In this document: piece by piece, positions 1,970 through 61,185 of the stretch
Position numbering within the stretch: the stretch's first letter is position 1
Layout: every line of letters starts with the position of its first letter
Notes under the pieces: model-generated
Told to the model about the DNA's origin: nothing
What the model saw: only the letters and a program-made list of their open reading frames with translations
The model's database searches: none
NCBI GenBank assembly: GCA_003142575.1
Contig: PLMS01000093.1
Span: 2,995-66,994, forward strand
From: Ignavibacteriota bacterium
Lineage (GTDB): Bacteria; Bacteroidota; Ignavibacteria; UBA10030
Direction of reading: 5' to 3'
DNA: 64,000 nt
Position numbers and translations under genes: made by a program

Positions 1970-2018
1970 TGTTTTCCGCTTACATTGCCGTGGCTTCATC
2001 GGTCATTTGCCATTGAGT

Positions 2019-3635: not shown

Positions 3636-3786
3636 TGTATTCCTCTTTGCATCGTCTATACTTCGTCGGCGTAATGCCATATGTCGGTTCACTTTCAGTC
3701 CCCGCATCTTTTATCTAAAATAGTTGACAAGAGAACAACCTGGTATTTGGTCGTTCTCCTGTCGATTAAAAACGTCGTCATCGCTG

Positions 3787-24686: not shown

Positions 24687-24770
24687 GCCCGGATGGCGAA
24701 ATTGGCAGACGCGCTAGCTTCAGGAGCTAGTGACCGCAAGGTCTTGGGGGTTCAAGTCCCCCTTCGGGCA
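24687..24770 (+). tRNA. tRNA-Leu (anticodon CAG), type II with a long variable arm. No encoded CCA.
   Basis: Acceptor GCCCGGA/TTCGGGC. Anticodon loop TTCAGGA. T-arm GGGGGTTCAAGTCCCCC. Variable stem GACC/GGTC. Confidence 0.85.
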
Positions 24771-43309: not shown

Positions 43310-44707
43310 TTAGACTTCTCGGGCTGCTTTCAGCAATGTTTCAACTTTCTCCGGTGTCTCTGCTTCAGCATAAAATCGGATCAACGGCTCTGTGCCTGAC
43401 GCACGGACGAGCACCCACCCATTTTCCACAAAAAGTTTGAAACCGTCTTTGGTTTCAATACGTTGAATAGAAAATCCGGCAATCTGCTTCGGTCCTTTCT
43501 TATAAATAGCAAGAATACGCTGTTTCTCTTTTTCGGTCAGATGTGCATCGTATCGATTGAAATAATGCCATCCGAACTCGCTCATTAATTCATTCACAAG
43601 TTCACTGAGTTTCTTTTTCCGAGTTGCCATAATTTCGGATAGCAGTAATCCGATGTACGTCCCATCGCGCTCTGGCAAATGTCCTTTCACACCAACTCCG
43701 CCGCTTTCTTCTGCCGCAATCAAAATGTCGCGCTCGACCATCAATCGGCAGAGATATTTAAATCCAACCGGTGTCTCGTGCAATACCAAGCCGTACTTCT
43801 TGCACATCTTGTCGATAATTTGACTGACAGAAAACGATTTCGCCACTTCGCCGGTCATCTTCTTTTCTTCGATAAAATATTTCAGAAGAATTGCAAAGAT
43901 CCGGTGTGAATCGACGAAGTTGCCATTCTCATCAAACGCACCAATGCGGTCTGCATCTCCATCCGTGGCAATGCCGATGTCGCATCCATTTTTCACAATT
44001 GCCTCAATCAATCCAGGAGTATTTTGTGGCAATGGTTCGGGATGACTCCCGCCAAATGACGGGTTGAAATCACCGCGTATCGATACCTTCAGCGGAAGAA
44101 TCTGATCCATCACTCCTTGACCTGCACCGTGCATCGCATCGTAAGCAATTTTAATTCCGGACGACTTGATAAGATCAATATTTATTTTACTCTTAATATC
44201 TTTAATGTATATCGAGGTGAAATCAATTTTTTTTATGAGCCCTTTTTCAACCAACTCCTCAAACGACTTTTTGCTTACTACTTTTGACTTTATAACTTTC
44301 TTCAGTTCCTTCTCCACTTTCTCGATTGACTCTGGAAAAGCTGGACCACCAAAGTTTCCCTTGATTTTGAAGCCATTGTACTTCGCTGGGTTGTGGCTGG
44401 CAGTAATGATGATGCCTGCGGCGGCATCGAACTTTTTCGTCAATAAAGAGACCATCGGCGTAGAAGAAATCTTATCTGAGAGAATAACCTTCATTCCGCG
44501 ATTGCCAAGAACTTCCGATACCTTTTCTGCAAACTCCATTGATAGAAAACGCGAATCGTACCCAACAACAATGCCGTTTTTTATTTTTTTGTCTCGCTTG
44601 TAGAAGTTCGCTGTCGCAAGTGCAACCTTCGCGATGTTTTCAAAAGTGAAATCATCGGCAATCACTCCGCGCCATCCGTCTGTACCAAATTTTATGTGTG
44701 GAGTCAT
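43310..44707 (-). CDS. Phosphoglucomutase/phosphomannomutase family protein (phosphohexose mutase).
   Basis: Active-site Ser loop IIITASHNPAKYNGFKI. A four-domain alpha/beta/alpha pattern. Confidence 0.85.
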   Translation of the reverse strand: MTPHIKFGTDGWRGVIADDFTFENIAKVALATANFYKRDKKIKNGIVVGYDSRFLSMEFAEKVSEVLGNRGMKVILSDKISSTPMVSLLTKKFDAAAGIIITASHNPAKYNGFKIKGNFGGPAFPESIEKVEKELKKVIKSKVVSKKSFEELVEKGLIKKIDFTSIYIKDIKSKINIDLIKSSGIKIAYDAMHGAGQGVMDQILPLKVSIRGDFNPSFGGSHPEPLPQNTPGLIEAIVKNGCDIGIATDGDADRIGAFDENGNFVDSHRIFAILLKYFIEEKKMTGEVAKSFSVSQIIDKMCKKYGLVLHETPVGFKYLCRLMVERDILIAAEESGGVGVKGHLPERDGTYIGLLLSEIMATRKKKLSELVNELMSEFGWHYFNRYDAHLTEKEKQRILAIYKKGPKQIAGFSIQRIETKDGFKLFVENGWVLVRASGTEPLIRFYAEAETPEKVETLLKAAREV

Positions 44708-47184
44708 TATAATTTTTCCTTAACTGTAAATAGATTATATTCAGCCAATGATTCGTTGACTGACGTAACTTTCACTTTTTCATTGATCAATTTATCGATA
44801 AGTATCTTACCAGTTTTCAATTTGTTATAATTCGATCTAATTGTATCGAAAAACAAAATTTTCCAACTATCAAGTTCGAATCGTTCCGCAAACATCGGTG
44901 ATTTCATCTTACGCTGAAGCTGTTCTTCCCGCTCCTGAGGTATGATCATATACTTTGGTACATCCTGTGAAAGATTCGATCCGCGAACCAATCCGCTTGT
45001 CATTGTTGTTGTTGATTCTACTTCGAATGCTGCAACAACTTTGTTCCCTTTGATCCAGAGTAAATCGATCATCTCGACGGTTTTCAGGTCTTCAATACCG
45101 CTCACCTTGGAAAGGTCGGCATCAACATAGTTTTGAAGAAGCTTCTTTGCCCCTATAATTCCAGCAGCAAAATCAGTTTGTTCCTTTTTTCCAATCCAGA
45201 TTTTATAACCTAGAGCTTGTCCGACTTCTGCCAACACCGCAATGATTTCGCTGTGCTGACTTATTCGCTCGCGCACTTGTGGCTTTAGCAACCAGAATCC
45301 ACCGGTCACAGGTCGTGCATATTGTTCCAGTGCCTCTTTAATACTCGTGCTATCCGATGTCAGCGAGTTAGGAAATTGAATACTCACAGCTTCCCACGCA
45401 TCTGTGAATGTTACTCTTCCTTTTCCTTGAAGAAGACGCAAAACAGTCTGCTCTACTCGCTCGGTAAGCGGAATTTCTTTCAATCGCGCCACTTGATTCG
45501 GATCCTTGAACCACCACAACTGTCCTTTTGCACCTCCAAGACGTTCTTCTACTAACTTAAACTCTTGGCCGATGTGGTTTTTCAACACCATTTTGACATC
45601 TAGTCCTGTATGCAGATTGGAGAAGTATCCTTGCTTTGCCAAAATAGGATCGATAAAATTGATAACAATGGTATATGGAGTTGGTTCTGCTCTTTCCGCC
45701 AGCAATTGGATTGTGGTATCAACAACAATCTTTTCAAAACGCTTCTCATCAATTTCTTCCGGTACTTCAATGCGAGATGCTTCCGATTGTGGTTTGTGAA
45801 AACGAAGATAAAAATCACCCTGGGCAGAACCAAATGGTTGCAGAAGTGATTTTCCTGATTTTTGTGCAGTAGGTTGATGATGAATTTTTTCAAGCTCAAA
45901 TCCAGCATACGTTCCCGCGCGAATTGTTGCATTTCGCACTTGAAACGTGGGATTATGAAATGTGACAGTCATGTAGCGCCCAAGTTTCAGCGCTGCATGC
46001 ATTCCCTCAAAACTGCTTTTCAATAAACCGTGATAAACATCGAAATCTTTATGTTGCCGTTCATTGCGAACAACTTCTTTAGCAGAAATTGTATCAGTGT
46101 AACCCGTATCCTTTTTCAACCAGGCAGCCCACATATATGAAAGCTCGCCGTATTGGATCGAAGCATCGTATGGAGGATCAGTAAAGATATAATCCACTGA
46201 GCGTGAGGTAAGTTTTGCAAAGACATCCAGACAATCGCCAGTGATTATGCAGATGTCTGCTTTCCCTTCAAGGACTTGCTTGGGGTTCGTGGTTATCTTC
46301 ACATCCTTAAAAAATTTGTTGGATTCCACCTTCGCTTTAAGAAGTCCCTGATGACCAAGTATTGAACTTTCAAATTTATTCCAGACATTTTGTTCCATGA
46401 ATTCAGGCGCAAACCAAAAGCTATGTTGTGTCCACACAGAACTGAATGCGGTTTGATGATTAGTTGGCGCCGGGCTGAGAGCGGGTACCATCGTTGAACA
46501 CAAATGCACCATTGAGGAGAATGCAATTTTCAAGAAAGCTTTTAACTTCTCATCTTCCTCTTTCTCAATGGATTTCATCAGCAAAGCAAGTGCATAGAGA
46601 TTTCGTGGAGTAAATAGTTCATCGATGGATTCATACCGTTCCTTCTTCATAAACGGTGTTCCATCTGAATAATAAAGCGGATTCTTTGGATACCAAATTT
46701 TTTTCTTGTTGAATTCTTCTTCGATCTCTTTTATTCTTTTGAGATCTTTCCTGGTTGGTTTTCCGCCTTTTTCAACAACTTTACCACAGTTTGTGCATTT
46801 GTAACGAAGTTCTTTGAGAGTCAGATTTTTCTTTTCATCCCGATTCCAAATTGAACACTCAACCGGAATATCTTCACCACATTTCCGACATTCCGTTACG
46901 TACAAACCATCGATCTGCGACTTTACATCTTGTTCAACACGGACAAATGCTTCCCGCAAGCGAAGTGGTTCTATATATTCAACAGTAAGCCGTAATATTT
47001 CTGTCGCAATAGGATTGAGATCAACGGCAATCACTTTCCTTCCAAGCTTCAATGCTTCTAGTGCAGTGACGCCACTGCCGGAGAATGGATCCATCACTAT
47101 ACCACCCTTCGGGCAATACGTTTCGATAAATTGCGATATAACATTCCAGGTTTTTCTTCCCCAGAATTTGTGCCAATTGTACAT
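44707..47184 (-). CDS. Circularly permuted N6/N4 DNA methyltransferase with a zinc ribbon (COG1743-like) and an uncharacterised C-terminal domain of about 400 aa.
   Basis: Motif I MDPFSGSGVTALEALKLGRKVIAVDLNP is near the N-terminus. A C4 zinc ribbon follows (CRKCGED...CTNCGK). Motif IV VDYIFTDPPYDASIQYG lies about 300 aa later. The stop overlaps the mutase start codon by 1 nt. GC looks lower than neighbours by eye. I use the internal ATG start (MYNWHKFW), although the track ORF starts at a TTG. Confidence 0.75.
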   Translation of the reverse strand: MYNWHKFWGRKTWNVISQFIETYCPKGGIVMDPFSGSGVTALEALKLGRKVIAVDLNPIATEILRLTVEYIEPLRLREAFVRVEQDVKSQIDGLYVTECRKCGEDIPVECSIWNRDEKKNLTLKELRYKCTNCGKVVEKGGKPTRKDLKRIKEIEEEFNKKKIWYPKNPLYYSDGTPFMKKERYESIDELFTPRNLYALALLMKSIEKEEDEKLKAFLKIAFSSMVHLCSTMVPALSPAPTNHQTAFSSVWTQHSFWFAPEFMEQNVWNKFESSILGHQGLLKAKVESNKFFKDVKITTNPKQVLEGKADICIITGDCLDVFAKLTSRSVDYIFTDPPYDASIQYGELSYMWAAWLKKDTGYTDTISAKEVVRNERQHKDFDVYHGLLKSSFEGMHAALKLGRYMTVTFHNPTFQVRNATIRAGTYAGFELEKIHHQPTAQKSGKSLLQPFGSAQGDFYLRFHKPQSEASRIEVPEEIDEKRFEKIVVDTTIQLLAERAEPTPYTIVINFIDPILAKQGYFSNLHTGLDVKMVLKNHIGQEFKLVEERLGGAKGQLWWFKDPNQVARLKEIPLTERVEQTVLRLLQGKGRVTFTDAWEAVSIQFPNSLTSDSTSIKEALEQYARPVTGGFWLLKPQVRERISQHSEIIAVLAEVGQALGYKIWIGKKEQTDFAAGIIGAKKLLQNYVDADLSKVSGIEDLKTVEMIDLLWIKGNKVVAAFEVESTTTMTSGLVRGSNLSQDVPKYMIIPQEREEQLQRKMKSPMFAERFELDSWKILFFDTIRSNYNKLKTGKILIDKLINEKVKVTSVNESLAEYNLFTVKEKL

Positions 47185-47243
47185 TGGCGTATGGGCTTGG
47201 GGCGGTATTTGGTGGTTAAGATGGATCAATGTTTGAAAAAGAA

Positions 47244-47462
47244 AGGCTGGTGAGAAGTTGGAACTCCTTCCCAGCCATATTTACGTCCTTCACAGTTTAC
47301 AACTTCGCATTCACTGCTGATTTACCGGCGTAGATCGAGTTTGTTCCGAGTTCTTCCTCAATGTGGAGTAATTGATTCTACTTCGAATGCTGCAACAACT
47401 TTGTTCCCTTTGATTCAAAGTGAATCGATCATCTCGACGGTTTTCAGGTCTTCAATACTGCT
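47244..47462. repeat. Chimeric diverged duplicate: enolase 3' end plus 3'UTR hairpin (~48742..48874) fused by microhomology to an internal MTase fragment (~45012..45102).
   Basis: Hand alignment gives about 80 bp matching the last ~23 enolase codons plus the stop, then about 88 bp matching the MTase interior. The junction lies at attgattNtacttcg, which is shared by both sources. There are about 9 substitutions and all are transitions. Confidence 0.7.
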
Positions 47463-47484
47463 ATAGAAATTTCCTCATCGCGTT

Positions 47485-48627
47485 TTAATTAATATTAAGA
47501 ACAAGCGGTATTGTCACTCGGAATGTCGTTCCTTCTTCTTGCGATGTAGTAAACGAAACTTTTCCATGGAGATACCGCTCACTTAGTAGTTTCATACTGT
47601 ATGTGCCAAGTCCACGGTTCGAACCATTTGTAGAAAATGATCGTTGGAACATTTGCAACTGAACATTTCTTGGAATAAACGATGTATTGTGCACCCAAAA
47701 TTCAACAGATTCGTTGTGATGAGCACAGCCTACTGTAACTATTCCTTTTTCTGGAGATGCTTCGAGTGCATTCTTAATCATATTGCCAAGAACACGTCCC
47801 AATAAAGTTGAGTCGGATACAAACATAATTCGCATTGCATGAAGATCAACGCTGATTGTACGATTTTCCGCAACAATGTGGTGGCGATAGAATTCGCAAA
47901 CTTCTTGTATGCAATCAATTGAATTAATCTCTTTTGGGTTTGCTGCTAATTCATTGCTTTCTGCTGCCGCAAGTTCAACTTGTGCTTTAATTTCATCAAT
48001 AAGTTTTCTCAAAAGATGTTTGATTGTACTCAGACATTCTTTCTGAATTTGCGGATCTTCTTCTTCCATCATCTCAAAGTACCCAGTGAGTCCTCCTGTC
48101 GTGTTTAATACATCATGGAAAAATATTCGTTCTAACGCACGACGGCGTTTTTCGTGACTAATATCGCTAATCGTAAAAATCGTGAATGTTCCATGATAGG
48201 TATTCAGAGGTGTTGCGGTAACTCTCAATTCCAATGGGTCTAAATTTCCTTCTCGCGATATTAAATATTCCTGAACACTTGCATTTCCTTTCTGGCTGAC
48301 AAGGATGGCACGCACAGCACCGCATGTACGGCAATATTCTGTTGTACCGCATCCACCTTCGCTTTCTATTGCATGTATACATCGCAACACTTCGCCATGT
48401 CTTTTCCCATGTGAAGAATGTTCTCCAGATAATTTCATGAATTTGTCCATTGCATGATTGGCAAAAACAATTTGCCTGTGTTCATTCAAAATTACAACTA
48501 TGATAGGTACAGCATTCAGTACTTCACTCTGTAAAGAGTTTTTTATAAAAAAATTAATTTGTTGATTCAAATCTTCTGTGGTTGCACGTTCTGCTGGCGC
48601 ATATTGTGTCGGTAATGATGTAATCAA
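47485..48627 (-). CDS. Cytoplasmic sensor histidine kinase with an N-terminal 4-Cys (C-x10-C-x6-C-x2-C) PAS-like sensor domain.
   Basis: H-box FFHDVLNTTGGL. HATPase GNMIKNALEASPEKG ... GLGTYSMKLL. Cys cluster CIHAIESEGGCGTTEYCRTCG. No TM segment. Confidence 0.75.
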   Translation of the reverse strand: MITSLPTQYAPAERATTEDLNQQINFFIKNSLQSEVLNAVPIIVVILNEHRQIVFANHAMDKFMKLSGEHSSHGKRHGEVLRCIHAIESEGGCGTTEYCRTCGAVRAILVSQKGNASVQEYLISREGNLDPLELRVTATPLNTYHGTFTIFTISDISHEKRRRALERIFFHDVLNTTGGLTGYFEMMEEEDPQIQKECLSTIKHLLRKLIDEIKAQVELAAAESNELAANPKEINSIDCIQEVCEFYRHHIVAENRTISVDLHAMRIMFVSDSTLLGRVLGNMIKNALEASPEKGIVTVGCAHHNESVEFWVHNTSFIPRNVQLQMFQRSFSTNGSNRGLGTYSMKLLSERYLHGKVSFTTSQEEGTTFRVTIPLVLNIN

Positions 48628-48793
48628 GACAATCTTCCTTTATTTTGTAAACTTTTGTCAGCAAATTCTAAGCAATTAAAAAATAATATCAAAACGCGAG
48701 AGAATATTTCCACACAACGAAGCAGTGAAGAGTGCGCCATGTGGCTGGGAGTGTACCTCCCTCCCAGTTTCTTCGTGTTCTTCATCGATATCT

Positions 48794-50185
<1,392 letters not shown>

Positions 50186-50314
50186 TTATGCACTTAAATA
50201 AAGCCAAAAATTGCTGGAAATGCAATGGAAGCTGCGTGACCTTCCGAAGGGAATGAGACAGTATTCTGCTACGCGGAAGTCAATGTTAATGCTTCCTGCT
50301 CTTCGGAAGGTTTT

Positions 50315-50524
50315 TCAATTCGAAATCTTCCCACCCATTACACCTTGGGCAAACGTGCGGAAACTCCGGTCGTATGTCTGTTCAACACTGTCCGGGAAAC
50401 AGCAAGCGGACAATTCTTGCATGCGCAAATGATACTGTATACATTCACAACACGTTCCCTTGCGTGAACAAGGTTCATAACTGCAATTACATTTCTTCAA
50501 GTTTTTTGGCTTATTGCATTCCAT
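50315..50524 (-). CDS. Small cysteine-rich protein (69 aa) of unknown function.
   Basis: MECNKPKNLKKCNCSYEPCSRKGTCCECIQYH ... ACCFP carries 9 Cys in 69 aa. Starts at the internal ATG of the 117-aa ORF. Confidence 0.5.
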   Translation of the reverse strand: MECNKPKNLKKCNCSYEPCSRKGTCCECIQYHLRMQELSACCFPDSVEQTYDRSFRTFAQGVMGGKISN

Positions 50525-50581
50525 ATTGTGTCCTCGTTTACTATTTCCTCTATGCGTAACCTTCGGAGGTCGCCACAGTAA

Positions 50582-50627
50582 CCTTGTCAAAATTTTCTTG
50601 GTTAAGTTATTGGCAGCTTTGACAAGG
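50582..50627 (-). promoter_or_regulatory. Inverted repeat CCTTGTCAAA-N26-TTTGACAAGG, with a downstream direct repeat AAGGTTAC x2, in the 5' leader of the Cys-rich gene.
   Basis: Perfect 10-bp arms. Position suits an operator or a leader stem. Confidence 0.35.
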
Positions 50628-50630
50628 CTC

Positions 50631-52886
50631 TCAGACGCCTTCTGAAGGTGGCTTTGATTCAAACTCACATCGTTCTATCCATTCTTTTATTTCAATTTTT
50701 AACGAAATAGTCGGAGCAACCGGCAAGGCTTTCTCAAATAATGTTCCTGCTTTCTTCCATTCTTGCATTGAGAAGTACACTCGCCCAAGCCGCTGAAGAT
50801 AAAAGAACTCAAGTGATTTTAAGTTCGAAGAACTCATATGTTCAAAAATACTGCAAGCTTCACTGTATTTCTCTTTGCCTGCGAGTTCACGTGCGAGCAA
50901 GTATCGGGCAAGCGGAGAAGATAATTTTGAAAGTCGATCCATTCGAACCGTATCTTCCATGGAATAAGTGAAATAGACTCGCAGCTCGCTGCGGTCTTGT
51001 TCATTCTTCAATGATTCTAACCGAAGCACACATGCTTCTTCATACCAGGCATTCAGATGAGAACGTGCCATCATTTCATATTCTTGTTTCGCACGAACGA
51101 GTGAATCCATCGCCCAATACGCATCACCGAGCCGGAGATGGATCGGGAGAAGAGCGGAACCGAAGCTCGTGTCGCGCAATTGAGTTTCAACAAAGTCTGC
51201 AGCATCTTTGAATCTCCGCAATTCGAACAATGTTGTAGCTTTTTGGAAAACAGCTTCAGGTGTTTTGCTTAACCTCAGCGATCGCTCTGTCGATGCAAGT
51301 GCTTTTTCAAATTCATGACGAGCTAGAAGTTCTCTTGTTTCCGAGTTGAGATTAGCAATCACTCGTGCACATTCTTTTCCGAAGATCGATAAACGGCGAA
51401 AGAAATATTGAGCTTTGATGCTGTCGTTTGCCGTGAATTGTTGGCGGTGAACGATCGTTCGCCATTCCGTGAGAAGCGAAGGAAGAGTGCGGTTGTATGT
51501 GAGAACAAAATCTCCGGAGAGATAAAGCTTCTTGAACTGATCAATCCCGAACGAATCAATAAGGAATTTGCAGAACGATCCTGCAAGTGCGTAACTCACT
51601 CCTGCATTCACTTTCGCAAATCCAGAGAACGAGAATAATGATTCCATGTCCGGATTGACACCGGCGGCAAAGACTAAAGCAGCGGCGCGGTCGAGCGGTT
51701 CATCGTACAACACATCGTCTCCAACTGCCACCGCGATTCCTTCCACAAGCCCCGAGTTGTGTGAAATCTTGAGAGGCGACCAGCCAAATTCTCCAGCAAG
51801 GATGTGCGCCATTTCATGCTTCAAACCTGCATCCACATCTGTGAGATTAATATGAATCTGCCGCAGCCATGGTTTGGCGATATCCGTATGCCCTGCCCCG
51901 ATAAGCTTTCCTTTCTCCTCGGGTGAGGAATACAAGAAAGAAACAATACGCTCCTGGGTCTGGACATTCAGAGCGTGTGAAAGCTTACTGTAATAGTACT
52001 CGTGCAAGCGTCCCAGTTGCTCGATTTGTTCACGCTGCACAGAACCGGCAGGATAAATGATTTCGAAATGTGTAGTCTGATAATTCCCAACAAGCTTCTG
52101 TTGGATATAGTGTTGAGACGATGAGAATCCGAGCCGATCGCTGAACAACATCATCACAAGAACAATTGGAAGCAGCAATGCAAGTAGTACGATTTCTATG
52201 AAGGGAAAAGATTGATAAGAAGCATCTGTACGTTCTTTCCTGTGAAAACGAATGTGCCAAATCCATACTGCAGAGGTAACGAGACATCCGGATGCGGCAC
52301 ATGTCGCTAATCGGTAAATCAGCAAGCGTTGGGTCACTTGCAGTGTTTCGTCATATGTAAATCCAGGGAAAAAGCCAAGAATTGGATTAAAAGCAAATAT
52401 TTGCGGGCGGAAAAATGTAACAAGCGGAATCTGCAGAAGAACAAGAATGTACAATACTGTAAATATTGTCTTTCGCCATTTTTCGAATACTATTCCGACA
52501 ACCATTGCTAAAGCAACCGAGAAGAGTACACCGGGAACAACAGTAAGAACATAGAGCACCATTCCATCCCCAATAGAACAGTTCTTCACGAAGAGAACAT
52601 TCGCCAGTGAAATAAGAAACGGAATAACAAGAAGGATAAATTGAACGAACGCGATTTCACCGACAAACTGCCAGACATCTGCTTTACATTCGCAGTCGGT
52701 TTGTTTCCAGAGTGAAAGTGTGAGAAGTCCGCCAACAAACCCGGCAAGAACCACGGTGAGCGCAGAGAATTCAAAGCCAAGATAGTTGAAAAGCGGAACG
52801 CGTGTACAAGCAATGGTAAAAAGAATAAAAATAAGTACAGAAATTTGAAATGCACGTGTTTGAATGAATCTTTGGATTCCTATCAT
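50631..52886 (-). CDS. Polytopic membrane protein with a peptidase-MA-like HExxH domain and C-terminal TPR repeats.
   Basis: About 8 N-terminal TM helices. LKHEMAHILAGEFGW ... LVEGIAVAVG resembles Peptidase_MA_2. A TPR-like helical C-terminus. Confidence 0.6.
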   Translation of the reverse strand: MIGIQRFIQTRAFQISVLIFILFTIACTRVPLFNYLGFEFSALTVVLAGFVGGLLTLSLWKQTDCECKADVWQFVGEIAFVQFILLVIPFLISLANVLFVKNCSIGDGMVLYVLTVVPGVLFSVALAMVVGIVFEKWRKTIFTVLYILVLLQIPLVTFFRPQIFAFNPILGFFPGFTYDETLQVTQRLLIYRLATCAASGCLVTSAVWIWHIRFHRKERTDASYQSFPFIEIVLLALLLPIVLVMMLFSDRLGFSSSQHYIQQKLVGNYQTTHFEIIYPAGSVQREQIEQLGRLHEYYYSKLSHALNVQTQERIVSFLYSSPEEKGKLIGAGHTDIAKPWLRQIHINLTDVDAGLKHEMAHILAGEFGWSPLKISHNSGLVEGIAVAVGDDVLYDEPLDRAAALVFAAGVNPDMESLFSFSGFAKVNAGVSYALAGSFCKFLIDSFGIDQFKKLYLSGDFVLTYNRTLPSLLTEWRTIVHRQQFTANDSIKAQYFFRRLSIFGKECARVIANLNSETRELLARHEFEKALASTERSLRLSKTPEAVFQKATTLFELRRFKDAADFVETQLRDTSFGSALLPIHLRLGDAYWAMDSLVRAKQEYEMMARSHLNAWYEEACVLRLESLKNEQDRSELRVYFTYSMEDTVRMDRLSKLSSPLARYLLARELAGKEKYSEACSIFEHMSSSNLKSLEFFYLQRLGRVYFSMQEWKKAGTLFEKALPVAPTISLKIEIKEWIERCEFESKPPSEGV

Positions 52887-52933
52887 TGGAGATATCTCGG
52901 CAAAGGCGAGATACCCTCGCCCTTATGAATAAA

Positions 52934-54205
52934 TTAAAATTCCTCTCCCTTTTCACGAAGGATATCCGCGCCGAGCGCTTGAAGTTTTTTTTCAACAGAT
53001 TCGTATCCGCGGTCGATGTGGTACACACGCAGAACTTCCGTTGTTCCTTCTGCTACAAGACCGGCGAGAATGAGCGACGCGCTTGCGCGCAGATCGGTGG
53101 ACATTACTTTTGCACCTGTCAATTTTTTCACACCTATGACGGTGGCAACATTTTCTTTCAACGTAATATTCGCGCCAAGGCGAATCAATTCCGGCACGTG
53201 TGTAAAACGGTCGAAATAGACTGTATCCTTTACGATACTTGTCCCTTGTGCCAACGACATCAGTGCAATCCATTGCGCCTGCATGTCGGTCGGGAAACCT
53301 GGATAGATTGCTGTCGTCGCATTGACTGCATAGATTTTCTCGGGCGGTGTAAGTTCTATCCAATCGGCACCCGTTCTGATCTTCGCACCGATATCTTCCA
53401 ACTTCACTATAAGCGCACCCATATGGTGCTGATTACATTTCTCCAGACGAATCATTCCTCCTTTTTTTCCTGCCATTGCTCCGGCAATGAGGAATGTACC
53501 GGCTTCGATTCGATCCGAAATAGTTGTAACATCTGCCGGATGCAATTCATCCACACCTTCTATTTCCAAACGGCCTGTACCGATCCCGTGAATCTTCGCT
53601 CCCATCTTCACGAGAAACTCTGACAATTGGACCATCTCCGGTTCCTGCGCTGCATTTTCGATGAGAGTAGTTCCCTTTGCCAGTACAGCTGCCATCATCA
53701 CGTTGCCTGTTGCACCGACACTCGAGACATCAAAAAGAATTCGCGTACCACTGAGACGCTTCGCCTTTGCGATGATATAGCCGGCATCAAGCTCAATCTC
53801 AGCTCCAAGTTTTCGGATACCTTCGATATGCAAGTTCACCGGACGCGGTCCCCACGCACAGCCTCCGGGAAGTGAAACCTTCGCCTGACCAAATCTTGCC
53901 ACTAACGGACCTAATACATAAATAGAAGCCCGCATTTGTTTTACGTGTTCATACGGTGCTTCGTAGCTGTTCATCGTCTTCGTATCAATCGTTAATGTTT
54001 GGTCGACTAATGATACACCTACCCCCATCGTTTCAAGCAAACGTCCCATCGTAAGTATGTCGCGCAAATCCGGAGTATTATGAAGATGATATATTCCATT
54101 CGCCAGAATCGTCGCCGGCATCAGTGCGAGACTTGCATTCTTCGCACCGCCGATCATGACTGTGCCACTGAGGGGCTTTCCGCCATTGATAACGAACTTA
54201 TCCAC
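52934..54205 (-). CDS. murA: UDP-N-acetylglucosamine 1-carboxyvinyltransferase.
   Basis: MDKFVINGGKPLSGTVMIGGAKNASLALM N-terminus, full-length MurA pattern. Confidence 0.95.
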   Translation of the reverse strand: MDKFVINGGKPLSGTVMIGGAKNASLALMPATILANGIYHLHNTPDLRDILTMGRLLETMGVGVSLVDQTLTIDTKTMNSYEAPYEHVKQMRASIYVLGPLVARFGQAKVSLPGGCAWGPRPVNLHIEGIRKLGAEIELDAGYIIAKAKRLSGTRILFDVSSVGATGNVMMAAVLAKGTTLIENAAQEPEMVQLSEFLVKMGAKIHGIGTGRLEIEGVDELHPADVTTISDRIEAGTFLIAGAMAGKKGGMIRLEKCNQHHMGALIVKLEDIGAKIRTGADWIELTPPEKIYAVNATTAIYPGFPTDMQAQWIALMSLAQGTSIVKDTVYFDRFTHVPELIRLGANITLKENVATVIGVKKLTGAKVMSTDLRASASLILAGLVAEGTTEVLRVYHIDRGYESVEKKLQALGADILREKGEEF

Positions 54206-54310
54206 CGCTTGCTCCTTTGTTCATATTTCGGTAGGATTGTATGTATTAACGGAGGCAATATAGTCCATTATGCGAATAAAGGCAAAAACTTATTGAAGTA
54301 TGAGGTGACG

Positions 54311-54844
54311 ATGAACCAACAGACTATATCTAATACACTTACTGTCATTCACAATCGCAAAAGTGTGCGGAATTTTACGGGCGAATCGGTAACTCAAGAC
54401 CAATTAGAAATTCTTTTGAAGGCTGCTATGGCAGCTCCAAGTGCAGTTAATTGTCAGCCGTGGGAATTTATCGTTGTTACCGATAGAAAGACTCTTGATA
54501 CTCTTGCTGATGCACTGCCCTTTGCTAAAATGCTTTTCAAGTCAGGCGCAGCAATTATCGTCTGCGGTATTCCGGCAAAAGCACATAAACAAATGGCCGA
54601 ATACGCTGTCATTGATTCTACATTGGCAAGTGAAAACATACTTCTTGCGGCTGAAGCTTTAGGCCTTGGCGCCATTTGGACTGCGGCATATCCCTATCCC
54701 GACAGAATGGAATCTGTAAGATCAATTTTGAATATTCCGTCAGATGTCATCCCTCTTAATGTCGTCCCCGTCGGTCATCCAACAGGTGAAGATAAACCAA
54801 AGAAAAAATTTGATCCAAAAAAGATTCACTCGGAGACATGGTAG
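54311..54844 (+). CDS. Nitroreductase family protein.
   Basis: HNRKSVRNFTGESVTQDQLEILLKAAMAAPSAVNCQPWEF is an FMN-nitroreductase signature. Internal start with a GAGGTGA ribosome-binding site. Confidence 0.8.
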   Translation: MNQQTISNTLTVIHNRKSVRNFTGESVTQDQLEILLKAAMAAPSAVNCQPWEFIVVTDRKTLDTLADALPFAKMLFKSGAAIIVCGIPAKAHKQMAEYAVIDSTLASENILLAAEALGLGAIWTAAYPYPDRMESVRSILNIPSDVIPLNVVPVGHPTGEDKPKKKFDPKKIHSETW

Positions 54845-54935
54845 AGTTTTGTGTTGTACTTGTCTTTCGTGCGAAAAATAGCTAAATAGTTTTGCAGCAT
54901 GAGTTTTCAGTTCTTTAAAACGAACATAAAATTAA

Positions 54936-56261
<1,326 letters not shown>

Positions 56262-56267
56262 CTGTAT

Positions 56268-57512
56268 TTGTTCGATATGAAAACAGCATCGCTTATCAAA
56301 TCTGCTGCGACCGGTTCTATTCCTCTCTCCGGCAGATTGAAAATTTTCCTGCTGGTGCTCGCCTTTGCAATCATCGCCGCGACATTGTGGTACACCCATG
56401 ACCTTGTGGATGCGCTCAGCAAGAAAGAAAAAGAAGTTGCCGATCTCTATGCCAAGTCGTACGAATATGTTGCTGACGGCAAAACAGGCGATGGTGATTA
56501 CAATTTCCTCTTTTCTGAGATCATCAATACCATTGACTTTCCCGTCGTGATGACAGATCGAAACAACGAACCGGCATATCCTTACAGCGCCAGTATTAAG
56601 AACATCTCTCTGGATTCAACGCGATCACGGGAAGAACAACACCAATTCCTTAAAGACCTCATTGCCGAGATGGACCATTCTCGCCCGCCCATCAAAGTTG
56701 CATATCAAGATACGATCGTTCTCAGTTATCTCCATTATGGCGAGTCGACACTCATTGTTCAGCTCCGTCGGCTTCCCTATATTGAACTTGCTGTTGCGGC
56801 GCTCTTCGTTCTCATCGGCTATATCAGTTTCAGCTATGTCAAACGAAGCGAGCAATCCAACATCTGGGTCGGTATGGCGCGCGAGACGGCACATCAACTC
56901 GGAACACCAATTTCAAGCATGCTCGGCTGGGTGGAATTGTTGAAAGACCAATCGACCGGAGATGCAAAAGCAATGGAGACGCTGCTCGACATGGAGACCG
57001 ATCTCTACCGTCTCCAAAAAATCGCTGATCGGTTTTCGAAGATCGGCTCCAAACCGGATTTACATGAAGAGAATCTTACCGAAGTCATTACTAAAGTGAC
57101 AGAGTATTTCCGACGGCGAATCCCCCAGCTCGGTAAGAAAGTTCATCTTGTTATCGAATCGCCGGGACCGATGTACGCACGCATGAACCGCGAGTTATTT
57201 GAATGGGTCATTGAGAATCTAACGAAGAACGCGCTCGATGCCATTGAGAACGGCGAGGGAACGATCGCCTACTCCATTTCCCAACACAGAAACTACAGCT
57301 TCATCGATATTTCCGATACCGGCAAAGGCATTGACCTCAAACATCGCAATGACGTATTTCGTCCCGGCTTCTCGACGAAGAAACGCGGTTGGGGTTTAGG
57401 CTTAAGTTTATCAAAACGCATCGTCGAGTCGCATCACGGCGGTAAGTTGTTTCTCAAAGAGAGCAAATCCGGATTCAAAACGACATTTCGCATACGGTTG
57501 AATAATACATGA
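56268..57512 (+). CDS. Membrane sensor histidine kinase.
   Basis: Two TM helices. H-box ETAHQLGTPISSMLGW. HATPase ISDTGKGI ... GWGLGLSLSKRIV. Confidence 0.8.
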   Translation: MFDMKTASLIKSAATGSIPLSGRLKIFLLVLAFAIIAATLWYTHDLVDALSKKEKEVADLYAKSYEYVADGKTGDGDYNFLFSEIINTIDFPVVMTDRNNEPAYPYSASIKNISLDSTRSREEQHQFLKDLIAEMDHSRPPIKVAYQDTIVLSYLHYGESTLIVQLRRLPYIELAVAALFVLIGYISFSYVKRSEQSNIWVGMARETAHQLGTPISSMLGWVELLKDQSTGDAKAMETLLDMETDLYRLQKIADRFSKIGSKPDLHEENLTEVITKVTEYFRRRIPQLGKKVHLVIESPGPMYARMNRELFEWVIENLTKNALDAIENGEGTIAYSISQHRNYSFIDISDTGKGIDLKHRNDVFRPGFSTKKRGWGLGLSLSKRIVESHHGGKLFLKESKSGFKTTFRIRLNNT

Positions 57513-57519
57513 GGGATTT

Positions 57520-58404
57520 ATGAAACGTTCTTATCTTTTTATCTTTGTTGTCTTACTCGCATCTTCGCTCTCATTGGCTCAGGTGCAGATCGAAGACGAG
57601 CTGTATTCATCTGTCGTAGGCATTGAAGGCAAAACACATCAAGGACGCTGTGAGTTCATCAAAAATCAATTACATGCTCTCGGTGTTGGGTACGTCGCTG
57701 CGCCGTTTAATCATATTGTCGTCAATAAAAAAGATACAACGATGACCAAAGGTGAAAATATTATCGTTCGGGTCGGAGCAGGGACAAAGCGAATCGTTGT
57801 CGGAGCGCACTACGATGCATTTGGCGAGTCCCCAGGCGCCAATGATAACGGCAGCGGCGTTGCTGTTTTGCTTTCGCTCATTAAACAACTTCAAGATACG
57901 GTGTGGAATTACAGTGTGGATTTTTGTTTCTTCGATCTGGAAGAGGCAGGGCTCCTCGGATCAGATTATTATATCACACAGTTTGTCATCCCTCAGCGTC
58001 ATATTGCGATGATCAATCTCGATATTGAAGGCACAGGTGAGGAAGTGTATGTGGGACCGGTCGGCAGCAATAGTCAAAATATTATGCGTTATGTTCATGA
58101 AGCAGCGAAACAAACAGGGTTCCCGTTCTTTGAGAGCGCGGAGTTCCCCGCTTCGGATCAAGTGTCGTTTGAAAAATCCAATTTGCAAGATATCGCCGTT
58201 TCGATCGTTCCGAAAGGTGACGCCGAGCGTTTAAGTAAGTATGTGCGCAACGGCTACAAAGCCGATTCCATCGATACACCGAAAGTTCTTGGTGTCATGC
58301 ATACATTTGAAGATCGTTCGAGACTTGTCTCTCCTGCATCGCTGAAGATGTCGTATGAATTCACCAAAACTTTGCTGATGCTCCTGAACGAGTCTGGAAG
58401 GTAG
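57520..58404 (+). CDS. M28 family peptidase (aminopeptidase-like), secreted.
   Basis: VGAHYDAFGESPGANDNGSGVAVLLSL is the M28 zinc-ligand motif. Signal peptide. Confidence 0.8.
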   Translation: MKRSYLFIFVVLLASSLSLAQVQIEDELYSSVVGIEGKTHQGRCEFIKNQLHALGVGYVAAPFNHIVVNKKDTTMTKGENIIVRVGAGTKRIVVGAHYDAFGESPGANDNGSGVAVLLSLIKQLQDTVWNYSVDFCFFDLEEAGLLGSDYYITQFVIPQRHIAMINLDIEGTGEEVYVGPVGSNSQNIMRYVHEAAKQTGFPFFESAEFPASDQVSFEKSNLQDIAVSIVPKGDAERLSKYVRNGYKADSIDTPKVLGVMHTFEDRSRLVSPASLKMSYEFTKTLLMLLNESGR

Positions 58405-58952
58405 TTCTGCACGTTGATGAGACTCTCAGCGTAGACTGTGTGACACCTACCGGACAACAACAAGCATCGTCAGGTTTGAATGCACTCATGAAAACATTCG
58501 GGAATGATAAATTTATTTTGTTAAGCGCTGTTCCTACCGTGCGTAACGTCAGTTTGTAAGTCGGACAATTGAAGATATTTATCCTATCATGTATTGATGT
58601 ATGCCAACAAAAATAGAAATTGCCCGTTGCTGCCTCCTTTGATCCATCGAAAACTTTTTACTTAAGATAATTTTGGATCACTTTTTGGGAGACAGGTCAA
58701 TGTTGTTCCAGTCCCAATGTGATCCACCTCTCTTTTTTTGACCAAATATTTCCAAGCCGCGAGGAACAACTCTTGCAGTTGCTATCCGTTTATGAGGCGC
58801 AAAATATGCAGTATGGTGCATTACTTGCACGAGTGAAGAAAGAAGATTCTTCATTTCAAACAGATTTCCTGATTTTCTATGCGGCATATAGATTGCAGTG
58901 TTATTTGTGAAGTAATCCATTTTCATCATAGAACATTATAAATGAGAGAGAA

Positions 58953-59080
58953 ATGAAAAATAAATTCTGTTTTTTTTTCAGCAACCGTATTAACCATCGC
59001 ACTGATTTTCATTCATTCCCTTCTATCGCAAACTGCACCAATACCAGAGTGCACCAAAGAGTACATCGGAATTCTCTGAA
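58953..59080 (+). pseudogene. Remnant N-terminus of a secreted protein, interrupted by a T9 homopolymer.
   Basis: The ATG is followed by a run of 9 T. One T fewer would give MKNKFCFFSATVLTIALIFIHSLLSQTAPIPECTKEYIGIL then a stop. Confidence 0.3.
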
Positions 59081-59275
59081 ATCGAGTAATGGGCATAACG
59101 GTAAATCTCCGTACACAATAAACAAATCCGACGGTAGTTCAGTGAAACTGATGAATCGATTATTAAATAATTTATAAATCGTTATTAAAACATTAGAATT
59201 CCCGGAAATTATTCCTCACCCTATTTTAGATTCTCGAAGTTTCTCACTACTGGCGACAGGAAAACTTAGGGAATC

Positions 59276-59393
59276 TTGTCATGCATACATTGGAAGACCG
59301 TTCGAGACTTATCTCTCCGGCATCGCTGAAGATATCATTTGAATTCACCAAAACTTTGCTGATGCTCCTGAATGAGTCTGGAAGATAGTTCCA
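59276..59393 (+). repeat. Diverged duplicate of the M28 peptidase 3' end (last ~35 codons plus stop), about 880 bp downstream of the intact gene.
   Basis: Hand alignment to ~58291..58408 gives about 9 substitutions, 5 synonymous and 4 conservative (F/L, V/I, M/I, Y/F). Frame and stop are preserved. Confidence 0.7.
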
Positions 59394-59439
59394 TTGATAT
59401 CTGTAACCCTCACCACTTTAAATAGTAGTAATGTTTTAA

Positions 59440-59459
59440 ATCTGGACAAGCCGAGCTTG
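59440..59459 (+). repeat. 20-bp direct repeat DR1, copy a (atctggacaagccgagcttg). Copy b lies at ~61043..61062.
   Basis: Exact 20-mer occurring twice about 1.6 kb apart in the same orientation. Confidence 0.6.
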
Positions 59460-59515
59460 CCTGCCCTGAATTCTTTTTCCGGGGAGCGCTTGGTTAGCCC
59501 GCGGCCTCACAAGAA

Positions 59516-59980
59516 TCACCGTTGCACGAATGCAGACTCCAACGTTTCGAGAACCCTCTCGCGTGTCGGGAATGTCATTATTCCCACCAAGATTAATAAA
59601 ACGGCAGATGCTGCATTCAGCCAATACATCGGATAAAATTCTATTGTCCCGTTCTGAACCCCAATCATACAAATCACGGCTCCGAAGAAGGAAGCTCCTT
59701 CAATTGGCGCCATGAGTAATAGTGAGCTTGCCCGGTATAATCCCACGGCATAAAGAGCTGCCTCTTCCGGTGTTTGAATGTCAGACTGCTCGGTGAGACG
59801 TTCGGGACGCAGCTGAAGGCTTGAGAGATAGAACGCTATTGTGGCCGCTACCAGCGTGAACACAGCATGTGCTACGGAAAGCACATTCATCAACGACATA
59901 TCTTGTTTGCTAAAGCTGTCAGGATTGAACATGGAATATAATAGAAGAACTACGAAGTAGTAGAACGAGATTCCAAGCAT
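59516..59980 (-). CDS. Small 4-TM membrane protein of unknown function.
   Basis: Hydrophobic helices, internal start at MLGISFYYF. Lies in an AT-rich region. Confidence 0.45.
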   Translation of the reverse strand: MLGISFYYFVVLLLYSMFNPDSFSKQDMSLMNVLSVAHAVFTLVAATIAFYLSSLQLRPERLTEQSDIQTPEEAALYAVGLYRASSLLLMAPIEGASFFGAVICMIGVQNGTIEFYPMYWLNAASAVLLILVGIMTFPTRERVLETLESAFVQR

Positions 59981-60105
59981 CAGGGCAATTCTGATGATCA
60001 CAATTACTCGCAATTGTTTCGCTGTCAAGGCTTGTTCAAGATGTATTCGACTGAAATTAATTGAAAAAGTCACAATAATATTCTCTGATATTTTGTTGGA
60101 TAAAT

Positions 60106-60122
60106 GCCGCCGCGCCCTAACG
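60106..60122 (+). repeat. Direct repeat DR2, copy a (cctaacggacggg then ctcc). Copy b lies at ~60815..60834.
   Basis: 13-bp exact core plus flanking similarity. Nested inside the DR1 pair. Confidence 0.5.
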
Positions 60123-60279
60123 GACGGGCTCCCGATAAATCGGGATGCGGTACTGATAATTTTCAATATGTAAATAACGAACCAAGTTCATTGTACCAAC
60201 TTTCAAATTATCTTAAAAGTTTTGGGGCACCATAATGAAAAAGGGCGGTCATCTCTTTATCTCTGAGTGAGACTATTTG

Positions 60280-60768
60280 TTAATGCAATCTGAGAGCGAT
60301 CATCAAGCCGACCAAGGAGGCAATCAATCCAGCAAAAGAGGCGGCAAAGGAAAACATCGCAATAAGAAAATTGAGTTGAGAAGCATAACTATTATACACC
60401 CGTTGGTAATTGACTATCATCGAATCGAATGCATACTTTCCATAGAGCCTGACATCACGGAGGACATCCATATAATGAAAAAAGCTTGTATTAGCATCTA
60501 CCTCTTCTGGGAAATTAAGATTAGGATGAATAGTAAAAACAGAAACCTCCTTATCCCAAAGGAGAAAACGCCCATGAAGTTCTTTGACCTGTTTGCCAAG
60601 TAAGCCAATTTTCTTTCTTTGGCCATATAAAAATAACTCAGGAATATGATAGTCCACAATAAGACGATTAATGCGATCATGCTCAGCCATAATTAAGTTG
60701 TGTTCAGCAAGAAGAGAAAAGTATATCGGATTCTTTTTTCTTTCTATTGCAATGGTGTTTATTTTCAT
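60280..60768 (-). CDS. Hypothetical tail-anchored protein (162 aa, C-terminal TM helix).
   Basis: Soluble N-terminal domain of about 130 aa. C-terminal helix FLIAMFSFAASFAGLIASLVGLMIAL. Confidence 0.45.
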   Translation of the reverse strand: MKINTIAIERKKNPIYFSLLAEHNLIMAEHDRINRLIVDYHIPELFLYGQRKKIGLLGKQVKELHGRFLLWDKEVSVFTIHPNLNFPEEVDANTSFFHYMDVLRDVRLYGKYAFDSMIVNYQRVYNSYASQLNFLIAMFSFAASFAGLIASLVGLMIALRLH

Positions 60769-61185
60769 ATTGAGAATGCCCTAAAATTATTTAGAAATAT
60801 TTTATGCTATGTGGCCTAACGGACGGGTGCTCCGCCAACCAGCCCGCTGCGCGTTCTGGCGGGAAAGACGGCGGACAAGTAAGTTTATCCCCAAATGTTT
60901 TTGTTGGGGACTGCCACACACCATACTTCCAAAATATACTAAACCGTTACCAGCCATGCTTAACGTACCCATTTATCCGCCATGCTTTATCTTTGGGCGG
61001 GCGCTTATTGAGATTAAGTATCGCGCTTTGCGCGATTCAATTATCTGGACAAGCCGAGCTTGTTGAGCGTTGTTTGCACGTTTTTCAGTGTCCCGTTCTT
61101 TCATCAACGGGGAGAAATCCCGCTGTTTCGCGTTGTGTGCGTCCCAATGTTTTATATCGGGATGGCGGGGGTTATGTTGCAATTG

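Follow-up and report, generated by a model that had tools for sequence, protein, structure and literature searches.

Tandem alleles behind duplicated eno and M28 peptidase gene tails in an uncultivated Ignavibacteriota bacterium: probable scars of homologous exchange closed by illegitimate joining

INTRODUCTION

In homology-facilitated illegitimate recombination (HFIR) one end of the incoming DNA is anchored by homology and the other is joined illegitimately, a route that has been proposed for the sequential displacement of modules at type VI secretion system (T6SS) and Rhs loci (PMC5361080). Here we describe a comparable arrangement at two housekeeping genes, eno (enolase) and an M28 peptidase gene, within a 64-kb stretch of DNA (the window) from an uncultivated Ignavibacteriota bacterium found in fen and peat metagenomes, whose nearest species representative is the metagenome-assembled genome fen_1287. 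At each gene the 3′ end is present twice, once as the end of the live gene and once as a dead copy further downstream, and a small insert lies between the two.

Three other described systems bear on such a layout. Insertions with long target duplication, which involve no recombinase (Furuta, Abe & Kobayashi 2010, PMC2853133; Nobusato et al. 2000, as cited in PMC3874152), are defined by direct repeats >30 bp that are single copy in the empty-site genome, together with the absence of mobility genes; their mechanism is not established, but double-strand breaks have been suggested to take part (PMC2853133). Cassettes that vary between constant flanks have been described in Neisseria as minimal mobile elements (Saunders & Snyder 2002, through PMC3787668) and are also known from core defence hot spots free of mobile elements (PMC10250203). 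Finally, transformation can make duplications that retain both alleles (Johnston et al. 2013, PMC3784515).

RESULTS

Two alleles in tandem at the eno locus

Comparing the window with itself (BLAST and a repeat search) returned three strong short direct repeats beyond those internal to proteins, namely two copies of the eno tail (E1/E2), two copies of the M28 tail (P1/P2) and two copies of a methyltransferase gene segment (M/M′; Table 1). E1 and E2 are 93.3% identical over 90 nt (E = 3e-32) and comprise the stop codon of eno with the 86 nt before it, while P1 and P2 are 92.2% identical over 115 nt (E = 2e-41) and cover the last 112 nt of the M28 gene plus the stop codon. Each tail pair contains a perfectly identical stretch of 33 nt, and in both pairs the similarity ends 1–6 nt past the stop codon. 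The interval between E1 and E2 is 1407 nt and holds one 380-aa histidine kinase (HK) gene; that between P1 and P2 (insert A) is 869 nt and holds two doubtful small open reading frames (ORFs). An earlier sequence-only reading of the window had noted this shared layout of diverged 3′-end copies flanking inserts of 0.9–1.4 kb, and these measurements bear it out. The third repeat had not been spelled out there: M (45012-45102), which sits inside the 840-aa methyltransferase ORF, and M′ lie 2.36 kb apart and are 95.6% identical over 91 nt (E = 2e-35).

The eno locus is best understood from the 80 related genomes that were compared at this site. Their commonest state is eno, a conserved terminator hairpin and then the PGM-family gene, the two genes being adjacent with a gap of 17–125 nt in most relatives and the site being empty in L021, L022, L025 and about 40 others. 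Overall the eno-PGM gap spans 2 to 2602 nt and contains an insert in ~27 of 68 relatives, drawn from at least eight unrelated cargo families that include the methyltransferase-nuclease, the kinase, a 267-aa lipoprotein, PIN-type and DUF4258/MqsA-like toxin-antitoxin pairs and an M48-like peptidase. The site thus has variable genes between constant flanks in close relatives without mobility genes, as in minimal mobile elements.

Both halves of the arrangement in the window occur on their own in this set. L024 carries a pure methyltransferase allele (eno-terminator-methyltransferase-PGM) with which E2-terminator-methyltransferase-PGM of the window is collinear, and the methyltransferase gene occupies the same site in L087, L088 and L094. 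A pure kinase allele without duplication (eno-125 nt-HK-22 nt-PGM) is present on the contig of P0127 (JGI 3300075153), known here by its gene map alone, and its HK-PGM gap has the same 22-nt length as that in the window. Judged by these alignments and maps, the window holds the kinase allele and the methyltransferase allele in tandem, each still behind its own eno tail.

The seam between the two alleles can be followed base by base. The kinase allele breaks off where the PGM start codon would be, and the sequence continues into M′ through a joint with ~1 nt shared; M′ in turn passes into E2 through a 14-nt overlap. Related seams are found in other species. In L026, a different species from SPRUCE peat at ~91% identity, eno-HK-M′-E2 is kept collinear and a lipoprotein-family gene (gene X) replaces the methyltransferase, starting exactly at the E2 stop codon; E2 of L026 resembles a live eno tail (98.9% identity to E1 of the window). 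The HK-M′-E2 composite therefore precedes two different downstream alleles: in the window it is followed by terminator-methyltransferase, in L026 by gene X. Comparing the L026 sequence 3′ of E2 with the eno-X spacers of gene X-bearing relatives gave no alignment, as these relatives are too distant. In L116, a third lineage at ~85% identity, HK-22 nt-M′ (75 nt of it) runs directly into the 5′ region of the methyltransferase gene and E2 is missing. As the HK|M′ joint is common to the window, L026 and L116, it is old, and the region has been re-cut several times.

eno is a recombination mosaic

Mismatch between the window and L026 is 16.4% upstream of position 49034 and 4.5% downstream of it (chi2 111). 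This breakpoint lies ~240 nt before the eno stop codon, and divergence stays low from there up to and including E2, across the spacer, kinase and M′. Block by block, identities of eno to relatives range from 77% to 98%: a 355-nt block (eno nt 700-1055) is 98% identical to L021 and 77–78% identical to L025 and L026, and the last 241 nt are closest to L026. At the level of sequence comparison we take the sharp breakpoint inside eno as direct evidence of homologous exchange. The start of eno is probably at 50089 (431 aa) and not at 50179.

The M28 peptidase locus

An empty version of the M28 site is found in L025, in which the M28 gene is followed by an N-type spacer, one copy of a hairpin module (R, see below) and the 3′ end of the gene for a BNR protein of the type IX secretion system (T9SS). 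In the window the D-type spacer follows the live tail instead, then ~100 nt without known origin, the 669-nt fragment and the dead tail P2 with its native N-type spacer. The joint between the fragment and P2, for which one parent sequence is known, shows patchy microhomology alone (GAnA, CAATGT). Other cargo is found behind the same gene in relatives: in L026 and L109 the D spacer is followed by a HigB/HigA pair and then by a dead tail that is longer, at 149 nt, and in L017, a strain of the species of the window with an identical M28 gene, the cargo differs from ~80 nt past the stop codon. The first ~80 nt of the D spacer are common to the window, L017 and L026, and at least five different states exist downstream of M28 among relatives. 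Of the 36 differences that separate another strain, L101, from the window over 8.6 kb, 21 fall within 58185-58449, which we read from the alignment as a 265-nt import tract over the M28 tail.

A scan of metagenome DNA with a 21-nt D-spacer probe found three contigs, two of known types and the unrelated L107, which was judged to be a chance match; it thus gave no new cargo variants and no convincing sign that the motif is used at other loci. The 83-aa and 74-aa ORF pair of insert A has counterparts between EI24-like and rhodanese genes in L110-L115 (JGI 2124908028 and related samples), with 77% protein identity for the 83-aa ORF; a second 83-aa ORF in tandem and local repeats of 95 nt are sometimes present there.

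The tails diverged as gene ends, the filler did not

Taken together, E1/E2 and P1/P2 differ by nine synonymous and five non-synonymous changes, against 23% synonymous sites expected (binomial P = 0.0013), and both dead tails are free of frameshifts and internal stop codons. Given this synonymous excess, the tails mostly diverged as working gene ends, i.e. as alleles in different lineages, which supports their earlier description as selection-shaped copies. M′ has the opposite pattern, with a stop codon (W to stop) and two further amino-acid changes relative to M against one synonymous change; it decayed neutrally once it had been copied.

Table 1. Coordinates of the features discussed in the text (positions in the 64-kb window)
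Feature	Position	Strand	Remarks
PGM/PMM-family phosphomutase (PGM)	43310..44707	-	Pfam; conserved right-hand flank of the eno hot spot
Methyltransferase with NmeDI_C-like C-terminal domain, 825-840 aa	44707..47229	-	N6_N4_Mtase; PADLOC Type II MTase models; precomputed PF27126 NmeDI_C
E2, dead eno tail (methyltransferase allele)	47296..47385	-	followed by the native eno terminator hairpin, 47245-47276
Microhomology joint CGAAGTAGAATCAA, switch from M′ to E2	47372..47385	-	methyltransferase sequence; 13/14 match to eno CGAAGTATAATCAA
M′, 91-nt dead copy of methyltransferase gene interior (putative templated filler)	47372..47462	-	95.6% identical to 45012-45102
HK-to-PGM spacer, 22 nt	47463..47484	-	GAGGAAA ribosome-binding motif; ends at the would-be PGM start codon
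Soluble histidine kinase (HK), 380 aa	47485-48627	-	HATPase_c
Putative imported block: 165-nt spacer and kinase	47485..48792	-	spacer holds a degenerate eno-terminator-like hairpin
E1, live eno tail (kinase allele)	48793..48882	-	self-BLAST; contiguous with spacer and kinase, also in L026 and L116
eno (enolase), 431 aa	48794..50089	-	Pfam Enolase_N/C; exact protein on 20 contigs; mosaic with breakpoint near 49034
M28 peptidase gene, 294 aa	57520..58404	+	Pfam; exact protein on 23 contigs; tail P1 at 58293-58407
D-type spacer 3′ of the live tail	58405..58510	+	native 3′ of M28 in L104, which has no duplication
669-nt fragment	58613..59281	.	87.7% identical to a segment between EI24-like and rhodanese genes of another genome
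ORFs of the 669-nt fragment	58678-58929; 58953-59177	-; +	no family matches
P2, dead M28 tail	59277..59391	+	followed by the native N-type spacer, to 59440
R1, copy of a repeated intergenic hairpin module	59440..59459	+	left boundary of the third insertion
Insert B	59460..61042	.	two small membrane-protein ORFs and a GC-rich, hairpin-rich stretch; absent from L025
ORFs of insert B	59516-60073/60166; 60280-60768	both -	small membrane proteins
R2, second copy of R	61043..61062	+	beside the 3′ end of the BNR/T9SS gene
BNR/T9SS gene	61186-63279	-	697-aa BNR/sortilin-like protein with T9SS C-terminal sorting domain

Tail duplications recur in relatives

The layout is not confined to the window, as ~1.4 Mb of related loci yielded further tail duplications. 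The eno tail of L096 (11180-11958; 104 nt, 99% identity) brackets a toxin-antitoxin pair, that of a MerR-like gene in L034 (2040-3590; 131 nt, 86%) brackets a PALP/TrpB-like gene, and that of glnA in L100 (12734-16665; 68 nt, 84%) brackets a reverse-transcriptase gene together with a BT4734/PriCT primase-like gene; L082 has a weak eno-tail trace beside its PIN-type pair. The L096 pair, directly 3′ of eno, consists of 571 nt with a DUF4258 toxin, a YgiT/MqsA-like antitoxin and almost no non-coding DNA. The lengths of the duplicates vary by event (90 and 104 nt at eno, 115 and 149 nt at M28). Most inserts in the eno hot spot have no tail duplication at all, which argues that the duplication is an occasional by-product and not the signature of an insertion route.

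DISCUSSION

A mechanism for tail duplication

The most probable explanation, in our judgement, is a homology-anchored exchange of alternative alleles that was closed by illegitimate joining, either through HFIR or through template switching. Judged by their relatives, the eno and M28 loci are long-standing cassette hot spots at which related lineages carry alternative alleles, each consisting of a gene tail and its downstream content. RecA-type homologous recombination would swap these alleles, with the conserved genes as anchors, and in most cases the two crossovers would lie in homologous sequence and leave no scar. In the scar events the upstream end would have been resolved by homology and the other end joined illegitimately at a short microhomology, by HFIR or by microhomology-primed template switching during break repair. 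With the second crossover replaced by such a join, the incoming allele would be added ahead of the resident allele and not replace it, and the resident tail would be displaced downstream, where it is dead. At eno the expected product is E1-spacer-HK-22 nt, the 91-nt methyltransferase filler, and E2-terminator-methyltransferase-PGM; at M28 it is P1, the D spacer and the 669-nt scrap, followed by P2, the N spacer and R. The enzymology and the order of events are what we infer from these products. Being short and diverged, the repeats may persist as poor substrates for deletion because they recombine poorly. An addictive methyltransferase-nuclease, or the toxin-antitoxin pair in L026, may have favoured addition over replacement; Handa and co-workers reportedly observed in 2001 that a chromosomal restriction-modification (R-M) complex resists replacement.

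Two of the marks expected of HFIR are present. A homology-anchored end is indicated by the eno breakpoint at 49034 and by the 265-nt tract of L101, and a microhomology join that traps non-homologous DNA by the M′|E2 joint (13 of 14 nt) and, patchily, by the P2 joint. Of the origins that the sequence-only reading had offered, HFIR with DNA from a close relative is thus the one we favour, on account of the breakpoint and microhomology in eno, the allele-like differences between the tails and the pure alleles in relatives.

Several points weigh against this explanation. The third mark of HFIR, replacement or deletion of recipient DNA, is missing, as the resident tail is retained and duplicated, whereas HFIR in experiments usually removes recipient sequence and does not leave a gene tail doubled. 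The topology would therefore call for a variant based on break repair or template switching, or for two events in succession. The P2 joint has weak microhomology and one known parent sequence, and the M28 duplications of the window and L026 could be a single event whose cargo was replaced later, which leaves recurrence at M28 unproven. The eno tails of L096, at 99% identity, are a better fit to an in-situ duplication or a very close donor than to a merger of diverged alleles. The window contains no competence genes, and the junctions are supported at the level of assemblies and contigs.

Alternative explanations

If the duplications had instead arisen in situ, as a long target-site duplication from filled-in staggered breaks or as a local tandem duplication, the copies would have been identical at birth. 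The layout does satisfy the published definition of an insertion with long target duplication (PMC2853133), the near-identical tails of L096 are what such an origin predicts, and the M′ filler derives from the same chromosome region. However, the synonymous excess (P = 0.0013) is unlike the neutral decay of one copy, for which M′ provides the example; the sequence 3′ of each live tail is foreign to the site and native to that gene in other lineages; and the block of low interspecies divergence ends inside eno and not at the repeat. We consider an in-situ origin unlikely.

A further possibility is that each dead tail is an attR-like site left by a small integrative cassette, either a decayed island or a cis-mobilisable element (CIME). 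The attachment site of such a cassette would imitate the end of its target gene, and a site-specific recombinase encoded elsewhere in the genome would move it. The perfectly identical 33-nt stretch in each tail pair, the common left end of ~80 nt in front of three different M28 cargos, the toxin-antitoxin pairs and reverse-transcriptase/primase block among the cargo of relatives, which are typical of mobile islands, and the repeated hairpin R at cassette boundaries are all in keeping with this. However, Pfam assignments on every called gene of the 64 kb gave no integrase, transposase or resolvase domain, recombinase domains were likewise absent from the flanking 10 kb of related contigs, and IntI is not encoded in the window. 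The only tRNA gene of the window is a tRNA-Leu at 24687 and the repeat search found no terminal inverted repeats around the inserts, so that the reported lack of an integrase, transposase, tRNA target or insertion sequence (IS) end stands. Furthermore, what borders E2 on the left is not an element end but an illegitimate joint to scrap from a neighbouring gene, the common left end of ~80 nt is nothing other than the spacer that natively follows M28 in L104, and the 21-nt probe matched nothing outside M28 in the metagenome scan except L107. Repeat lengths vary by event, most eno hot-spot inserts are without repeats, and the eno and M28 repeats have no common motif. Neither a cognate recombinase nor reuse of the ends elsewhere, as expected of a site-specific integrative element or CIME, was thus seen in the window and the metagenome scan; nor do the repeats, being gene pieces of 90–115 nt, resemble the terminal inverted repeats and short target-site duplication of a transposon or IS. 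We regard attachment sites as rather improbable here. The suggestion of a new route or a recombinase acting in trans is likewise neither needed nor supported, given also that the pieces beside the dead tails are scraps of other loci and have no defined element ends.

As to the contig itself, the 6.3-kb eno and 4-kb M28 regions, all junctions included, are 99.9–100% identical in >20 contigs from at least 13 samples that differ in tools and assembler naming styles, a 1.66-kb contig covers insert A plus both its junctions, and L026/L109 (~91%) and L116 (~85%) have orthologous, diverged versions of the window junctions. The earlier suspicion that an assembler stitched together two coexisting strains with different downstream content at a common gene tail has a very small chance of being right, for although the copies are 7–8% apart (roughly a strain- or species-level distance), strain variation is real at these loci (L017, L101) and one JGI assembly breaks nearby, the identical junctions recur across all these contigs, the M′|E2 and HK|M′ joints recur with orthologous divergence in other species (both in L026, HK|M′ in L116) and a 14-nt imperfect overlap should, by reasoning, be too short to mislead k-mer assemblers. 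An assembly artefact is excluded as far as assemblies allow, and the contig is trustworthy, and usable for downstream analyses, at both loci. The JGI assembly in question, 3300037225, splits the sequence of the window into two contigs inside PGM (~44100-44220), and another sample has single-nucleotide polymorphisms at 44119 and 44135 in the same gene, which suggests that strain variation breaks assemblies there.

Comparison with described systems

Homology-anchored exchange with illegitimate closure would place the two loci closest to the orphan 3′ ends of T6SS effector-immunity, Rhs and contact-dependent inhibition (CDI) loci (Kirchberger et al. 2017, PMC5361080). There, too, a module enters via conserved upstream homology, the old 3′ end and the genes downstream of it are pushed back as orphans without a recombinase, and clean two-sided replacement is commoner, displacement being the rarer scar. 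The differences lie in what is displaced and what is carried. The displaced ends in the window come from housekeeping genes and the tails are near-identical, so that the swap diversifies nothing; the cargo consists of a kinase, a methyltransferase-nuclease, toxin-antitoxin pairs and scraps in place of toxin tips and immunity genes; and one joint is resolved to the nucleotide, with the sequences of both its parents available.

Insertions with long target duplication (PMC2853133) resemble the two loci in that small gene blocks lie between direct repeats (~45 bp to ~420 bp in the tabulated cases), several of which overlap gene 3′ ends. In the window the repeats exceed 30 bp and align to a single copy at the empty site (L025 for M28; L021, L022, L025 and L024 for eno), and no mobility genes lie in or beside the inserts. 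In contrast to this class, which has R-M cargo and mostly near-identical repeats, the inserts here are a histidine kinase gene or small ORFs without known family, the methyltransferase gene lies just outside E1/E2, the repeats are 7–8% diverged in an allele-like manner, and templated filler and microhomology are visible at the eno joint.

Minimal mobile elements and core defence hot spots, as far as PMC3787668 and PMC10250203 describe them, share with the eno and M28 loci the varied whole-gene cassettes, constant flanks, lack of mobility genes and homologous recombination in the flanks; they are, however, defined by clean allelic replacement, and duplicated tails and tandem alleles fall outside that definition. 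Merodiploidy by transformation (PMC3784515) is alike in that an attempted allelic replacement leaves the incoming and resident versions in tandem, but those duplications span 100–900 kb between long repeats, whereas the window has ~100 nt and a microhomology joint. With such precedents in print, calling the architecture undescribed was an overstatement: it is a well-documented further instance of a known scar type and does not need a new mobilisation route.

What the loci add is two recombinase-free cassette hot spots documented in an uncultivated phylum, with nearly all intermediate states preserved among relatives, and an illegitimate joint at base level with both its parents, which is rare among natural events. 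They lend natural-history support to the view that homologous exchange with occasional illegitimate closure, and not dedicated mobile elements, shapes small accessory-gene islands, and they caution that dead tails beside housekeeping genes are not automatically att sites. More speculatively, the dead tails may be portable homology arms: a cassette with a conserved gene's tail on either side could be moved by RecA alone into any related genome, irrespective of the downstream content there. The hints are the HK-M′-E2 composite in front of two downstream alleles, the break of L026 at the E2 stop codon and its live-like E2; we think this doubtful, but if true it would amount to a recombinase-free mobile unit that is especially favourable for addictive cargo.

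A third insertion and further observations

A third insertion lies downstream of the M28 locus between R1 and R2, a perfect 20-nt repeat (0 expected by chance) that encloses 1583 nt missing from L025. TCTGGACAAGCCGAGCTTG (59441-59459 and 61044-61062 in the window) is part of a hairpin module found 3′ of minus-strand genes, and occurs also in L104 (7414 and 10260), L109 (1178 and 2208), L102 (3394) and L025 (1671). R is thus not a target duplication; the module is repeated between genes, is present in one or two copies per locus in several relatives and has two alternative right-hand flanks. Since the sequences of relatives diverge exactly at its edge, R behaves like a boundary between cassettes or a point of recombination. 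Next to R2 lies a GTTRRRY-like motif, which was weighed as a possible integron-type core and dropped because it occurs in a single homologous flank type and is probably a coincidence.

Neither gathering nor permissive Rfam thresholds gave an RNA family in 58400-61300, none of the small ORFs in inserts A and B (four in all) had a match in Pfam, NCBIfam, PHROGs or PADLOC, and predicted folds did not beat shuffled controls for either spacer (the shared ~80 nt and N) or for the GC-rich stretch. That stretch (60800-61042) has a GC content of 0.49 compared with 0.35–0.40 nearby, many hairpins and no match in Rfam; L021 and L104 contain pieces of it in a different arrangement, and some pipelines call a 170-aa ORF (60804-61316) across it. 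L018 (ERZ28656106), otherwise 99.9% identical to the window, has a 26-nt deletion at 60294-60319, close to where the 162-aa ORF of insert B ends, and a run of N at 59192-59196. The neighbouring BNR/sortilin-like protein is built with repeats of ~41 aa (123 nt), and L101 has a small cluster of differences in its gene at 62409-62486. At the far end of the window (422-3707) two neighbouring DUF3943 genes are diverged tandem paralogues, which explains the 70–76% identical repeats at 536-1981 and 2130-3647.

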